Below, one piece after another: positions 2,225-6,866 of a stretch of 6,866 bases of DNA. The notes beneath the pieces were generated by a model, which was not told where the DNA came from, did not search any database, and saw nothing but the letters and a program-made list of their open reading frames with translations. The stretch lies in IMG/VR virus record IMGVR_UViG_3300000289_000108; one strand, given 5' to 3'. The stretch comes from a virus. Its lineage: Duplodnaviria > Heunggongvirae > Uroviricota > Caudoviricetes. The position numbers and the translations under genes are program-made. The first letter of the stretch is position 1. Every line of letters starts with the position of its first letter.

Positions 2225-2575
2225 TTAATTCCCCCGTGGATGCTGAAAACTACGTCCTGCAATTAAGCGGTCAACCGTGCGTAGCGCTTCGTACAATGTA
2301 AAATCCTGTCCGAACTGATTGTCGCCGTTGCTCAGTGCAAAAATGCGGTTTCCGGTAAACGGATTGCGTGGGCATTTGTGGACCACAATTCCAGCTTTCT
2401 CAATCAGCCAGGTATGCTCGCCGATTTGTTTTACTGGGTAGCCATCCGGCGTTGCGTGTGTTTCGCTCAGGCTGTAGCGAGAGTTGCTACGTGATGCACT
2501 GGTAGCGAAACGGTTAGCGTGGCGTTCCGCACCGTTGCGGAAGCGCGGCTGTGAAGAATTGCGCTGTAGTTTCAT
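2225..2575 (-). CDS. hypothetical protein, 116 aa, basic Ser/Arg-rich N-terminus
   Basis: Clean ORF with ATG 2573-2575 and a weak Shine-Dalgarno; first gene downstream of a 210-bp partly gapped intergenic region; no family recognised. Confidence 0.5.
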   Translation of the reverse strand: MKLQRNSSQPRFRNGAERHANRFATSASRSNSRYSLSETHATPDGYPVKQIGEHTWLIEKAGIVVHKCPRNPFTGNRIFALSNGDNQFGQDFTLYEALRTVDRLIAGRSFQHPRGN

Positions 2576-2785
2576 ATTAAAACTCTGTACCTTCGGTAAG
2601 GTGTACTCGTGTCACCTTGTATTGATTTGTGGTATTTTTTGTGTGTCTAGGACTTGGACTGGCCGGTTCAGGTCCTGGCTTATGTTTAATTAAATTGNNN
2701 NNNNNNNNNNNNNNNNNNNNNNNNNNNNNNNNNNNNNNNNNNNNNNNNNNNNNNNNNNNNNNNNNNNNNNNNNNNNNAGGTTTTC

Positions 2786-2977
2786 ATGTCAGAAGATAAA
2801 AAAGTTGTTAATTTGTTGAGTGACCTTAGTGCTGCTCTGGATAACATTAACCCTCCTAGGGTAAAAACGACGGGTGATAAAGACGCATTAAACGCAGAGA
2901 TTCATATATTACTGGCGTTAGTAACTGACAAAATTCAGCGTAAATACCCACCTGTCACACAACTGGTTGATTTTTAA
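2786..2977 (+). CDS. hypothetical small protein, 63 aa, low GC (about 37%); the only + strand gene inside the - strand operon region
   Basis: ATG 2786 directly after gap 2698-2777; followed by a GC-rich hairpin; convergent with the low-GC - strand gene starting at 3479. Confidence 0.45.
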   Translation: MSEDKKVVNLLSDLSAALDNINPPRVKTTGDKDALNAEIHILLALVTDKIQRKYPPVTQLVDF

Positions 2978-2985
2978 TTTGATTT

Positions 2986-3006
2986 ATGCCGGGCTGCTCC
3001 CGGCAT
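2986..3006. terminator. 8-bp GC-rich stem-loop (ATGCCGGG-ctgct-CCCGGCAT) between convergent genes; possible bidirectional terminator
   Basis: Perfect inverted repeat read directly; lies 9 nt after the stop of the 63-aa gene and 24 nt below the stop at 3030-3032; the flanking U-run is weak. Confidence 0.35.
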
Positions 3007-3270
3007 CTTCTAGCTGCCATAATGTCTCGTCACCTGATAGAGCAAAACGAAATGNNNNNNNNNNNNNNNNNNNNNNNNNNNNNNNNNNNNNNNNNNNNNN
3101 NNNNNNNNNNNNNNNNNNNNNNNNNNNNNNNNNNNNNNNNNNNNNNNNNNNNNNNNNNNNNNNNNNNNNNNNNNNNNNNNNNNNNNNNNNNNNNNNNNNN
3201 NNNNNNNNNNNNNNNNNNNNNNNNNNNNNNNNNNNNNNNNNNNNNNNNNNNNNNNNNNNNNNNNNNNNNN

Positions 3271-3479
3271 TTGACAACAGAATCTTTGTTTTCCAGTACT
3301 GATTTAGCGATTAGATATAGATGCCAGTAACTGGTTACAATTGTTACTCCTGTGATGTGTCGTAAATTAATTGCAATTCGTCCGTTATTATGTTTTTCCG
3401 CAAGGTATTTCAGGTTATCAATTAATGCTTGGTCATTTTTTGAAATAGTTATTGTGAAATCTGACGTGTTTGTTTTCAT
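3271..3479 (-). CDS. N-terminal fragment of a low-GC (about 33%) hypothetical protein (MKTNTSDFTITISKNDQALIDNLKYLAEKHNNGRIAINLRH...), continues into gap 3055-3270; the ISFCSIR-stop at 3030-3054 may be its C-terminus
   Basis: ATG 3477-3479; 69 visible codons without a stop; strong compositional shift from neighbours; the beta-strand plus helix pattern at the N-terminus loosely resembles ribbon-helix-helix proteins (inference only). Confidence 0.45.
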
Positions 3480-3588
3480 ACGATTNNNNNNNNNNNNNNN
3501 NNNNNNNNNNNNNNNNNNNNNNNNNNNNNNNNNNNNNNNNNNNNNNNNNNNNNNNNNNNNNNNNNNNNNNNNNNNNNNNNNNNNNNNN

Positions 3589-4123
3589 AGTTTTGAGCTT
3601 CTGCCTGTATAAACTCGCTTACCGTTAATGGTCTGGCAGTCTTCTTTATTAGCTGGAGAGAACTTCCTTTTCTGGCGGTCATACGTCCAGTAACTTTTCC
3701 AGTTGTGCCATTCTGGGGGCTCGTGCTCTGGTAGCTCATCAGCCAACTTGTCCCACTCTTTGGCGTTAAACCACCATACTCCGTCTGAGTTTTCATCTTC
3801 CGGGTTTGTGCGCGTCTNNNNNNNNNNNNNNNNNNNNNNNNNNNNNNNNNNNNNNNNNNNNNNNNNNNNNNNNNNNNNNNNNNNNNNNNNNNNNNNNNNN
3901 NNNNNNNNGAATGGCTACGCGCAGTGCAGATTTTGTTAGCCCAATATATGCCGCGCCTTTTTCCAGAGAGCAAAGCCCGGCGATCGGACCATCCAGCCGT
4001 AAAGTCGCTCCTTTTTTGTAGGAACGCTTTTTCTTGTTTTCTTCGTGTTCGTCGTCGTTGGCGGCATCAATGGATCCGCTGAGTGTGTCACTTTCCTGAA
4101 GTGGTTGGTGGTCAGATAACTCT
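3589..4123 (-). CDS. AlpA/Cox-like excisionase-family winged-HTH protein, seen as two fragments (3909-4123 and 3589-3817) split by gap 3818-3908; both ends lie in gaps
   Basis: HTH-like GAAYIGLTKSALRVAI, then across the gap a Trp-rich wing-like motif DGVWWFNAKEWDKL as in AlpA/TorI/Cox-type excisionases; first gene divergent from the repressor, as cox is in P2. Frame across the gap cannot be verified. Confidence 0.45.
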
Positions 4124-4260
4124 NNNNNNNNNNNNNNNNNNNNNNNNNNNNNNNNNNNNNNNNNNNNNNNNNNNNNNNNNNNNNNNNNNNNNNNNNNNNN
4201 NNNNNNNNNNNNNNNNNNNNNNNNNNNNNNNNNNNNNNNNNNNNNTGTTGCGCCTTGTGA

Positions 4261-4300: not shown

Positions 4301-4322
4301 GTGAAAAGAGGATACTCATCGT

Positions 4323-4664
4323 ATGGTGAACATGTCAAGAGATTACGCCAAAAAACTAAAGGCGATCAGAAATGCAGAAAAACTTACACAATCTCAGTTT
4401 TCGCAAGTAACGGGGGTTTCTGTAGGGACTATAGGGAATTATGAGTCTGGATATAAACCTGCGCGAATTGAGGTTGTAGAAAAAGTAATCCAAGTCGAGC
4501 GATTCGAAAAATACACTATGTGGATACTTCACGACAAAACATTTCCCGCTGCCGGGCAGGTTGCCCCGGCTCTCTCTCTTGATGGCTCTATTCAGTCGGA
4601 GGGCGATCAGGTTTCAATCGGTATTACCCAAAAATCACCCCGATCAGGCCGCAATGTTGGCTGA
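4323..4664 (+). CDS. phage P2 C-type immunity repressor, 113 aa
   Basis: AAGAGGA Shine-Dalgarno 10 nt upstream of ATG 4323; HTH region KLTQSQFSQVTGVSVGTIGNYESG and motif FEKYTMWILHDK...GQVAPALS match recollected P2 C (YESG, FTKYTLWF, GQIAPALA); immediately upstream of and co-oriented with int. Confidence 0.8.
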   Translation: MVNMSRDYAKKLKAIRNAEKLTQSQFSQVTGVSVGTIGNYESGYKPARIEVVEKVIQVERFEKYTMWILHDKTFPAAGQVAPALSLDGSIQSEGDQVSIGITQKSPRSGRNVG

Positions 4665-4733
4665 CTCTACACATTGAGCGAATTACATATCGCAAGGAGT
4701 GTTTAGTTAATTTATCCGTTGGAGGGGCTAATC

Positions 4734-5801
4734 ATGTCGATTAAGCAACTCAAAGACGGACGTTATCAGGTCGATGTCAGACCGCAGGGGGCGGAAGGAA
4801 AGCGGATTCGAAAAATCTTTGCCCTGAAATCAAAGGCTCAGGAGTTTGAGAAGTATGTGTTACAGAACTTTCATGACAAGCCATGGCAGGCTAAGCCAGC
4901 TGATCAGCGGCGATTATCAGAGCTGCTTGATGCGTGGTGGATGCTTGATGGGCGTAATCAGGCTTACGGGGATAGCTACAGGGTTAGGCTAGGGAAGGTT
5001 GTTCGTGAAATGGGAGATCCTCGCGCCAGTCAGATGACGCGAAAATTTATGCTTGAATATCGGTCAGAGAAATTACAGGCCGGATTAATGCCGTCCAGTA
5101 TTAATCGTGACTTATGCGTACTGTCTACCATGTTCACGGTGCTGATTGAAGCTGAGGTCTTTCACAACGCGAACCCTGTACGCGGTATACGAAAACTGAA
5201 AGTTCAGAACACAGAGATGGCCTTTCTTTCTGATGATGAGATTGAACGGCTTCTTGAGCGACTGGAGGGTGATGCGCGTCGTGTTGCCATTCTGTGTCTT
5301 TCTACTGGTGCCCGATGGAGTGAAGCATCGGAACTACGTGGAGAGCATATCGTTGGCAACCGGGTGACGTTCTTTAACACCAAAAACGGAAAATCCCGTT
5401 CGGTTCCTGTGGCGGATTCGGTCGTGCCTCTGATTAAAACCCGTCGAACGGGGTTATTGTATCAGGTTGATTATCTGAAGTTCCGGGAGATTCTTCAGGA
5501 GGTGAAACCNNNNNNNNNNNNNNNNNNNNNNNNNNNNNNNNNNNNNNNNNNNNNNNNNNNNNNNNNNNNNNNNNNNNNNNNNNNNNNNNNNNNNNNNNNN
5601 NNNNNNACGCATGTCATGCGTCATACATTTGCCACACACTTTATGATGAATGGCGGAAATATTGTTACGTTGCAACGAATCCTGGGGCACGCAACGATTC
5701 AGCAAACAATGACGTACGCTCATTTTTCGCCGGACTTCTTACAGGACGCGATCAACTTTAATCCGCTGGCTGAAAGTGTCCATAAACTGTCCATCGATTA
5801 G
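4734..5801 (+). CDS. int: P2-family tyrosine integrase, about 355 aa with an internal gap at 5510-5606
   Basis: GGAGGGG Shine-Dalgarno 6 nt upstream of ATG 4734 (the track's 4719 start is a TTG extension); MSIKQLKDGRYQVDVRP, PSSINRDL, AILCLSTGARW, HVMRHTFATHFMMNGG, TLQRILGH and QTMTYAHF match recollected P2 Int, including the catalytic R, HxxR, H and Y motifs. Confidence 0.9.
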   Translation: MSIKQLKDGRYQVDVRPQGAEGKRIRKIFALKSKAQEFEKYVLQNFHDKPWQAKPADQRRLSELLDAWWMLDGRNQAYGDSYRVRLGKVVREMGDPRASQMTRKFMLEYRSEKLQAGLMPSSINRDLCVLSTMFTVLIEAEVFHNANPVRGIRKLKVQNTEMAFLSDDEIERLLERLEGDARRVAILCLSTGARWSEASELRGEHIVGNRVTFFNTKNGKSRSVPVADSVVPLIKTRRTGLLYQVDYLKFREILQEVKXXXXXXXXXXXXXXXXXXXXXXXXXXXXXXXXXTHVMRHTFATHFMMNGGNIVTLQRILGHATIQQTMTYAHFSPDFLQDAINFNPLAESVHKLSID

Positions 5802-5873: not shown

Positions 5874-5884
5874 CAAGAAACGTT

Positions 5885-5908
5885 AAAGCGCCTGCGGGCG
5901 CTTTTTTT
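5885..5908 (+). terminator. rho-independent terminator (GCGCC-tgcg-GGCGC followed by a 7-T run)
   Basis: Perfect 5-bp GC stem extended by A-U pairs plus a U-tract, downstream of int or at the upstream host gene's 3' end. Confidence 0.7.
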
Positions 5909-5916
5909 GTCTCCCT

Positions 5917-5930
5917 TTGATACCGAACAA
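5917..5930 (+). promoter_or_regulatory. candidate FNR box of the dmsA promoter (TTGAT-accg-AACAA)
   Basis: 9 of 10 matches to the FNR consensus TTGATnnnnATCAA, about 240 bp upstream of the dmsA ATG; dmsABC is a known FNR-activated anaerobic operon. Confidence 0.45.
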
Positions 5931-6169
5931 TAATTACTCCTCACTTACACGTAATACTACTTTCGAGTGAAAATCTACCTATCTCTTTGATTTTCAAATT
6001 ATTCGATGTATACAAGCCTATATAGCGAGCTGCTATANNNNNNNNNNNNNNNNNNNNNNNNNNNNNNNNNNNNNNNNNNNNNNNNNNNNNNNNNNNNNNN
6101 NNNNNNNNNNNNNNNNNNNNNNNNNNNNTGTTACTGGAATCAATCGTGAGCAAGCTTGAGTGAGCCATT

Positions 6170-6866
6170 ATGAAAACGAAAATCCCTGATGCGGTATTGG
6201 CTGCTGAGGTGAGTCGCCGTGGTTTGGTAAAAACGACAGCNNNNNNNNNNNNNNNNNNNNNNNNNNNNNNNNNNNNNNNNNNNNNNNNNNNNNNNNNNNN
6301 NNNNNNNNNNNNNNNNNNNNNNNNNNNNNNNNNNNNNNNNNNNNNNCATTAACATTACCTTTTAGTCGGATTGCGCACGCTGTCGATAGCGCCATTCCAA
6401 CAAAATCAGACGAAAAGGTTATCTGGAGCGCCTGTACAGTTAACTGTGGTAGTCGCTGCCCGCTACGTATGCACGTCGTGGACGGTGAAATCAAATATGT
6501 CGAAACGGACAATACCGGCGATGACAATTACGACGGCCTGCACCAGGTTCGCGCCTGNNNNNNNNNNNNNNNNNNNNNNNNNNNNNNNNNNNNNNNNNNN
6601 NNNNNNNNNNNNNNNNNNNNNNNNNNNNNNNNNNNNNNNNNNNNNNNNNNNNNNNNNGTCTACAATCCGGACCGCCTGAAATATCCGATGAAACGAGTCG
6701 GGGCGCGCGGTGAAGGCAAATTCGAGCGCATTAGCTGGGAAGAAGCCTACGACATCATCGCGACCAATATGCAGCGCCTGATCAAAGAGTACGGCAACGA
6801 GTCTATCTATCTGAACTATGGCACCGGTACGCTGGGCGGCACCATGACCCGCTCGTGGCCGCCGGG
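6170..6866 (+). CDS. dmsA: anaerobic DMSO reductase catalytic subunit DmsA, 5' partial (continues beyond the window); twin-arginine signal peptide; two internal N-gaps
   Basis: [24 protein letters not shown] (Tat motif SRRGLVK); [68 protein letters not shown]; [61 protein letters not shown] all match E. coli DmsA as recalled, including the Cys-cluster motif. Confidence 0.95.

Follow-up and report, generated by a model that had tools for sequence, protein, structure and literature searches.

Hotspots in phage genomes have been described as a concept in previous work (PMC9122126), and antisense-oriented morons are known from P2-like phages (PMC3573123). In P2, the main hotspots are the interval between gpA and gpQ, which harbors old/tin, and the tail region with Z/fun and neaT. 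In addition, a survey from 2026 recognized the integrase-to-primase interval as a minor defence hotspot containing 8% of the recognisable defence systems (PMC13586616). Here, we analyzed a convergent pair of genes with low guanine-cytosine (GC) content in a stretch of 6,866 nucleotides (nt) from a Caudoviricetes virus (IMG/VR record IMGVR_UViG_3300000289_000108), and this entire stretch is referred to as the window. It covers the left end of a P2-like prophage (P88/Xuanwuvirus-type) which is integrated next to dmsA. The two genes, named X and Y in the following, are one allele of a conserved two-gene family and not an orphan pair, which was missed in the initial annotation of the sequence. The cassette formed by them and its associated signals are located in the window as follows (aa, amino acids; bp, base pairs; L001, the unmasked reference introduced below).

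2786-2977, plus strand: Y (orf63), the convergent member of the pair, 63 aa; open reading frame call, RefSeq WP_001287827.1
2984-3479, minus strand: X (orf140), 140 aa encoded by 423 nt once the mask is resolved; full open reading frame in L001, RefSeq WP_000856386.1
2630-2638, plus strand: TGGTATTTT, an extended -10-like motif that lies 81 nt ahead of the Y start codon and is the putative promoter for the Y unit
2647-2678, plus strand: stem-loop of 14 bp at the 5' end of the Y leader; terminator/hairpin scan, leader fold -21.5 kcal/mol, z = -3.3
2986-3006, no strand assigned: GC-rich hairpin past the Y stop and inside the last X codons (…EDAGSSPA-stop); fold -13.7 kcal/mol

Like the known P2-like morons, the X-Y cassette is present or absent in otherwise homologous prophages and has a lower GC content, and Y resembles them in being set against the surrounding operon with promoter- and terminator-like signals that are apparently its own. 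In contrast to these morons, the cassette is bipartite, with X being part of the early operon itself, and it carries no recognised defence domain. Its position differs from the two main hotspots as well, since it lies between cox and the DUF4761 gene, upstream of gpA and within the integrase-to-primase interval (PMC13586616). Further systems to be compared are prophage defence genes with cognate self-immunity, e.g. P22 sieB/esc and BstA/aba, and type II toxin-antitoxin systems, which are, like X-Y, linked and co-diverging two-component prophage cassettes. In addition, one component of the pair would plausibly be expressed in the lysogen and the other one during lytic growth. Unlike P22 sieB/esc, BstA/aba and the type II toxin-antitoxin systems, X and Y are convergent, and they have no sequence, domain or fold similarity to any of them.

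The window contains several runs of N, and open reading frame lengths and spacings read across them are wrong because these masks do not preserve length. As a reference, we used the prophage of E. coli JNE082640 (L001), which is unmasked and 99.7% identical to the window (megablast against complete E. coli genomes). Mapping of each non-N segment showed that the visible bases of the X-Y region are 100% identical to L001, and that each run exceeds the sequence beneath it by 70–78 nt. Only 5 nt are hidden under the 80 N at 2698-2777, 143 nt under the 216 N at 3055-3270 and 29 nt under the 103 N at 3486-3588. The initial annotation had regarded 2698-2777 and 3055-3270 as gaps to be closed and had allowed for truncated or interrupted reading frames. 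Since the runs are masks and the visible bases match the intact L001 sequence, no gap closure is needed; the full sequence is available in L001, where X is an uninterrupted open reading frame of 140 aa and Y is intact.

The leftward early operon opens with the Cox-family gene and extends to window position 1. The ATG of X is located 4 nt after the cox stop codon and is preceded by AGAGG 9 nt upstream, which identifies X as the second gene of this operon. Its stop codon lies at 2984-2986, leaving 6 nt between the stop codons of X and Y. With regard to base composition, Y (37.5% GC) and full-length X (38.5%) are clearly set apart from cox (49%), DUF4761 (52%) and the remaining early operon (49.6%); by a binomial estimate, this corresponds to approximately 3.4 and 4.6 standard deviations under the flanks for Y and X, respectively. 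The same holds for the GC content at third codon positions (31% for Y and 30% for X versus 52–53% in the neighbouring genes). The cassette thus deviates in composition from the flanking phage genes, as is expected of a moron.

Most of what had been read from the letters alone agrees with these values, and the observation of a low-GC convergent pair largely holds. The initial annotation described a 63-aa gene on the plus strand (2786-2977) with about 37% GC and a minus-strand gene starting at 3479 with about 33% GC over its visible 209 nt, both contrasting with about 50% elsewhere; the latter gene indeed has its ATG at 3479 and a GC content of 32.5% over this part. Y is also, as had been noted, the sole plus-strand gene within the minus-strand early operon in this window. 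The convergent orientation was recognized correctly, and the inverted repeat at 2986-3006 is present as ATGCCGGG-ctgct-CCCGGCAT, but it lies within the last codons of X and does not separate the two genes. Comparison of the E. coli and Yersinia alleles revealed ratios of nonsynonymous to synonymous substitution rates (dN/dS) of 0.15 for X and 0.14 for Y. Together with the conserved motifs described below, these values establish both as real coding genes under purifying selection. Rare altered copies of Y exist in public assemblies. In the 90-aa variant P0008, a frameshift after residue 54 replaces both the KYP motif and the C-terminal tail, and the reading frame continues into the X antisense region; the 72-aa variant P0007 has another N-terminus.

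Neither protein had been assigned to a recognised family in the initial annotation, and this was borne out by database searches. Comparison of X and Y with Pfam, PHROGs, NCBIfam and PADLOC yielded no match above noise, no defence family of PADLOC-DB v2 matched either of them at E <= 1, and profile searches with the X and Y alignments against PDB sequences returned no match. Word-indexed protein searches with single X or Y sequences retrieved near-identical E. coli copies only. An exhaustive phmmer search with X, by contrast, found two true distant relatives in Salmonella at 28–32% identity (E = 1e-7 to P0013), while the long matches P0015 and P0017 were rejected as spurious hits to repeat proteins. 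A profile built from the two Salmonella relatives and two relatives in neighbouring prophages retrieved 43 clusters, all of them from E. coli, Salmonella, Citrobacter or Yersinia, and recovered the query at E = 1e-43. All 43 clusters are annotated as ‘hypothetical’ and lack a Pfam domain of their own, with Phage_Cox being carried by one sequence of 184 aa encoded on a short contig.

On this basis, we defined an X family with a core of approximately 115–125 aa, the motifs ALLxxLxxL and (S/T/D)Y..(L/I)(H/Y) and a conserved glycine, to which orf140 belongs. Its members are encoded just downstream of cox in P2-like prophages, in most loci directly after it. In the alignment, only hydrophobic residues and tyrosine are invariant and the glycine is nearly so, and X therefore has no obvious catalytic site. 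The Y family, also defined here, comprises proteins which start with M-(S/N)-x-D, contain a proline-rich central loop and a C-terminal K-Y-P, and are encoded convergently to X; orf63 shares all of these features. At identities of 28–44% to orf63, the 60–64-aa homologues have M1, D4, L11, P24, L42 and K53-Y54-P55 as invariant positions. Membership in the Y family was judged by the multiple alignment together with the conservation of the genomic context, since BLASTP alone missed the member in L006. X is mildly acidic with an isoelectric point (pI) of 5.0–6.4. The pI of Y is 5.6 in this window and 4.9–6.3 in most alleles, and the commonest allele is basic (pI 8–9; up to 9.1). As the sequences are not hydrophobic and contain no membrane segment, both proteins are predicted to be soluble.

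To assess the linkage of the two genes, we compared the genomic contexts of ten X-family members and of relatives found by DNA similarity. All 14/14 loci with an X of 131–147 aa have a convergent 60–64-aa Y homologue abutting or overlapping the X stop. The 14 loci fall into seven alleles, found in E. coli, Salmonella and Yersinia, and the pairwise identities of X and of Y co-vary.

Next, we analyzed the position of the cassette in related prophages. The slot is delimited by two anchor genes; the coordinates of cox were mapped via L001 5112-5633, as its start and stop codons fall in masked runs.

3484-4245, minus strand: Cox-family gene, 173 aa in L001, proximal anchor of the slot; Pfam Phage_Cox E = 1.9e-7, PHROG 23196 E = 4e-116
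2225-2575, minus strand: DUF4761 gene, distal anchor of the slot and next gene of the early operon; Pfam PF15958 E = 1.7e-64

Phage P88 and E. coli PRO_A-1504 carry nothing between these anchors. In other dmsA-integrated relatives the slot contains an unrelated 68-aa protein, which is membrane-like, or a 64-aa soluble protein (L004, L005), and further prophages have other X-Y alleles at this position. DUF4761 is 85–94% conserved in the relatives regardless of the slot content. The X-Y allele of the window occurs in 270/5426 complete E. coli genomes (~5%), and 311 genomes have this cox type; among the carriers are the uropathogenic reference strains UTI89 and NU14 as well as many ST131 isolates. 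A particularly clear case is the comparison of L001 with L020, where int, C and cox are 91% and DUF4761 is 94% identical, and the X-Y alleles between them are unrelated. Presence and absence between otherwise homologous phage genomes, by which morons are recognized, is thus observed here. The earlier suggestion of a separately acquired module is supported by a slot that is empty, otherwise filled or occupied by a different allele between flanks of 91–94% identity, and the comparison of the same position in related P2-like prophages, which had been proposed as a check, identifies the slot as variable.

Compared with the empty-slot locus L007, the cassette appears as a clean insertion of ~688 bp reaching from window position 2651 to about 3486. 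It is flanked by a TAG microrepeat (window 2647-2650 and about 3483-3486; L007 2501-2580), and the identity with L007 stops at window position 2650. At 185 aa, the Cox protein of L007 is longer than the 173-aa form, and its final 12 codons run through the sequence which forms the Y leader in the window. Since Cox is 12 residues longer without the cassette, the insertion created the present cox stop codon. Exchange as a unit is illustrated by E. coli L018 and Yersinia L016, in which the shared part is restricted to X, Y and ~125 nt of the Y leader, at 75% identity. Furthermore, an identical X with a 98–100% identical Y follows three Int/C/Cox sets that differ from one another and occupy three integration sites, which argues against a function tied to immunity specificity (C or Cox). 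A scan of species-representative genomes with DUF4761 yielded 5 loci only. The commonest X-Y allele had no tblastn match among 50,697 phage records, and a tblastn search with X against plasmids retrieved two records, both near-identical copies. At the DUF4761 side of the slot, the 14-nt string TTTGTGGTATTTTT (window 2624-2640) is common to unrelated cassette alleles (Y leaders of L016 and L018) and to the empty-slot L007; it may represent a promoter core or a recurrent recombination joint.

We further looked into the transcription signals of the cassette, of which the early promoter lies outside.

4309-4338, minus strand: Pe-like early promoter, TTGACA-18-TATCCT; consensus scan, L001 5752-5723, 10/12 matches, a consensus match only

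Transcription of cox, X and the early genes downstream would start from this Pe-like promoter. On the opposite strand, the extended -10 motif TGnTAnnnT is found exactly once per allele within 130 nt upstream of Y in 6/6 alleles, at -76 to -81 in five of them and at -43 in the sixth. This motif was selected post hoc from the inspected sequences, and the probability of a chance match per 130 nt is 0.10–0.35. It is followed after 0–8 nt by a strong leader stem-loop in four alleles (this one, L013, L016 and L018), whereas the leader hairpins of L006 and L015a are not significant; in the window, the first bases of the stem-loop coincide with the cassette boundary. All alleles have a GC-rich hairpin approximately 10–35 nt from the Y stop, with z between -2.4 and -6.1 in L013, L015a, L016 and L018, and a fold that is not significant in L006. 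T-rich tails after this hairpin are restricted to the Y strand, with clear examples in L006 and L015a. The sequence architecture of the Y unit is conserved, and the hairpin at 2986-3006 is likely a terminator or 3' stabiliser of the Y transcript. No terminator-like site was found within the cassette on the strand of the early operon, and transcription from Pe presumably crosses Y in antisense direction to reach DUF4761 and the replication gene. A search against Rfam revealed no known RNA family inside the cassette.

As a tentative interpretation, which we place ahead of the others with some reserve, X and Y, the products of the horizontally exchanged two-gene accessory cassette at window positions 2651 to about 3486, could form a cognate pair serving opposite states of the phage. 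Promoter activity, the timing of expression, an X-Y interaction and the biological role are what we infer from the arrangement and conservation of the sequences. X would be expressed from Pe as the second early lytic gene and, consequently, would be made only on infection or induction. Y would be transcribed separately and in the opposite direction, starting from an extended -10 promoter of its own followed by a 5' stem-loop and ending at a terminator hairpin that lies within the final X codons. Because transcription from Pe would have to cross Y in antisense direction, the layout favours mutually exclusive expression, with Y in the lysogen and X during lytic growth. Being small, soluble and near-neutral and having no conserved catalytic residue, X and Y most likely act by binding other proteins. 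One possible scenario is that Y serves as a lysogen-state factor, e.g. in the exclusion of other phages or in host modulation, and that X corresponds to it in the early lytic phase, by neutralising Y or by sharing its target. The action of X would then leave the prophage's own lytic growth unhindered. A cognate relationship is suggested by the deep co-inheritance of the two genes and by their transfer as a unit, and exclusion with self-immunity, i.e. a lysogen function with a lytic counterpart, is the mechanism we prefer by inference.

Several observations weigh against a cognate pair. The consensus sigma-70 (-35/-10) scan identified no promoter for Y in any allele, and the extended -10 motif is also present in the empty-slot L007; given in addition its post hoc choice, the Y promoter is termed putative here. 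The junction hairpin of this allele folds with z = -1.5 and 14/200 shuffles fold equally well, so that it is the equivalent hairpins in the other alleles which back it. Neither structural nor sequence similarity gave a pointer to any function for X or Y, and adjacency alone could account for their co-variation. Moreover, some X lineages have Y replaced by a 78-aa protein, an ECs1072-family protein or a 162-aa protein, and the X variant in L028 is found without a convergent partner, its neighbour being a co-directional 117-aa gene. X can therefore exist without Y. Such swaps for unrelated convergent genes, the partnerless X and the fact that the slot also takes single unrelated genes would fit two functionally independent neighbours, with X as an early gene that is optional and serves host takeover or counter-defence and Y as an unrelated moron with its own promoter and terminator. 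Independence has to be reconciled, however, with a perfect co-occurrence across deep divergence (21–37% identity for X and 27–44% for Y) and with the movement of the pair as one unit between E. coli and Yersinia phages, and we consider it a doubtful explanation that still deserves attention. Alternatively, the cassette could act at the RNA level, by comparison with the behaviour of the lambda OOP RNA. In terms of layout only, the convergent unit here, as in lambda cII/OOP, begins downstream of the first gene that follows the cro/cox-type gene and ends at a hairpin in the 3' end of this first gene, ahead of the replication genes. X and a leaky Pe read-through into the replication genes would be damped by antisense pairing and transcriptional interference, which would stabilise lysogeny and leave the Y peptide a secondary role. 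The promoter-like motif, the leader hairpin and the terminator hairpin in the 3' end of X fit such a device, and early transcription must cross Y in antisense direction to reach DUF4761 and gpA. Nevertheless, Y is clearly protein-coding (dN/dS 0.14; KYP and N-terminal motifs persisting at 27–44% identity), and in contrast to OOP the antisense unit encodes a conserved 60–64-aa protein under purifying selection. The overlap with X comprises only ~30 nt and empty-slot relatives keep an otherwise intact early region, and overall an RNA-level device appears unlikely.

The initial annotation had suggested toxin-antitoxin functions, and a toxin-antitoxin or abortive-infection pair, consisting of one toxic protein and its antidote, would be in line with a fast-diverging two-gene cassette of low GC content in a prophage. 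At every locus, however, X and Y are convergent and do not form a co-directional autoregulated operon, no toxin, antitoxin or defence domain was detected with Pfam, NCBIfam and PADLOC, and the proteins have neither conserved catalytic residues nor a membrane segment. A classical type II toxin-antitoxin system was rejected for these reasons, and we regard a toxin-antitoxin or abortive-infection pair in general as very unlikely. Least probable of all is that X acts as a ribbon-helix-helix DNA-binding regulator of the lysis/lysogeny switch or as a CII-like establishment factor. Its position directly after cox recalls that of cII, which follows apl in phage 186 and cro in lambda, and the N-terminus of X had been described as loosely resembling a ribbon-helix-helix fold. 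The FTITIS segment underlying this resemblance is absent from all 29 aligned homologues, so the N-terminal strand is not conserved. In the AlphaFold model of X, residues 1–13 are of low confidence and are followed by a helix (14–29), a beta-hairpin (34–50) and a second helix (51–62), a topology which is neither the strand, helix, helix of the ribbon-helix-helix fold nor helix-turn-helix. Searches for ribbon-helix-helix or other DNA-binding families gave no match to X. X is mildly acidic, and an identical X serves three unrelated immunity regions. Unlike CII, which it does not resemble, X has no DNA-binding signature, and the cassette is dispensable and independent of the immunity type. Both the ribbon-helix-helix fold and a CII-like regulator were rejected on the homologue alignment, the AlphaFold model, the pI and this independence of immunity.

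Returning to the interpretation of X and Y as a cognate pair in opposite states, variants of X occur at the following loci.

L009 2833-4012; L021 3001-3719; L026 2501-3225; L022 3001-3961; L028 2501-3323: forms of X whose C-terminal tail is longer or different, with other convergent partners except in L028

The type of the C-terminal tail of X tracks the type of the convergent partner. In this respect, the loci resemble polymorphic cassettes, in which a conserved N-terminal part is combined with a swappable C-terminal part and a partner: the X core is conserved and its tail changes with the partner, which is either Y, the 78-aa protein, an ECs1072 protein or a 103-aa protein. They differ from polymorphic cassettes in that the partner of X is convergent and not located downstream in the same direction, that the tails of the short forms have only ~15 aa and that no toxin domain is recognisable. 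Among the partners of the X variants, one belongs to the ECs1072 family (NF033230, E = 1.5e-32), the 78-aa protein is weakly BssS-like, and the 162-aa protein is the third. A second kind of convergent pair is found in the early regions of Salmonella P2-like prophages (L013 3766-4804, L015 3001-3937). Here, a sense protein of 259 aa or 225 aa faces a 103-aa antisense gene, the coding 3' ends overlapping by 53 nt, and the sense proteins have a common C-terminal domain of ~70 aa (IRVISSFIPA…FVR(D/E)W). This domain and the 103-aa partner are joined to the X core in L015 or to a different N-terminus, which hints at tail-plus-partner modules.

It is conceivable, if improbable, that these loci belong to a previously unrecognised class of prophage ‘state-switch’ pairs. 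In such a pair, an antisense gene active in the lysogen would have its cognate counterpart in a sense gene of the early operon. Owing to convergent transcription, the two would not be produced simultaneously, the antisense partner would be exchanged jointly with the C-terminal tail of the sense protein as a specificity module, and the class could serve phage exclusion with self-immunity. In this case, the pairs of the 225-/259-aa and 103-aa proteins, of X and the 78-aa protein and of X and ECs1072 would be further members.

Within the searchable literature, no paper was retrieved that names the X or Y proteins, DUF4761 or a cox-adjacent hotspot. The cassette is a member of the prophage accessory cassettes, and the X and Y families themselves are uncharacterised; they have no annotation or structural relatives and yet are kept together across P2-like prophages of Escherichia, Salmonella and Yersinia. 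Should they indeed form a cognate system for lysogenic versus lytic growth, this would add a small, non-enzymatic module to the prophage accessory functions and a third kind of variable slot to the P2-like phages, located within the early operon. If the cassette is without phenotype, it would simply be another uncharacterised moron. It is a good candidate for testing, with a role in defence, superinfection exclusion or toxicity being a candidate function.

The remaining elements of the window comprise the genes to the right of the slot and the masked runs.

4323-4664, plus strand: C-type helix-turn-helix repressor gene, which defines the immunity type; RefSeq annotation in L001, helix-turn-helix families on the homologue in L020
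About 4719-5801, plus strand: integrase gene, part of the window content
2009-2175, 2698-2777, 3055-3270, 3486-3588, 3818-3908, 4124-4245, 5510-5606, 6038-6128, 6241-6346 and 6558-6657: N runs of the window

The Cox-family protein (173 aa) is about twice as long as the Pfam model, and the Phage_Cox match is limited to residues 58–129. It has an acidic N-terminal extension (…NDDEHEENKKK…) and a weak match to PADLOC mad1 (E = 0.0016). Near the prophage-chromosome junction, between the prophage integrase and dmsA, the window contains a full-length match to the enterobacterial small RNA STnc130 (5876-6010, minus strand; 136 bits versus a gathering score of 55). In the same prophage, upstream of the window, L001 744-944 (minus strand) holds adjacent matches to the C4 antisense RNA (78 bits) and the Hfq-binding RNA isrK (66 bits), an arrangement like that in P1-type immunity and anti-repressor control regions.

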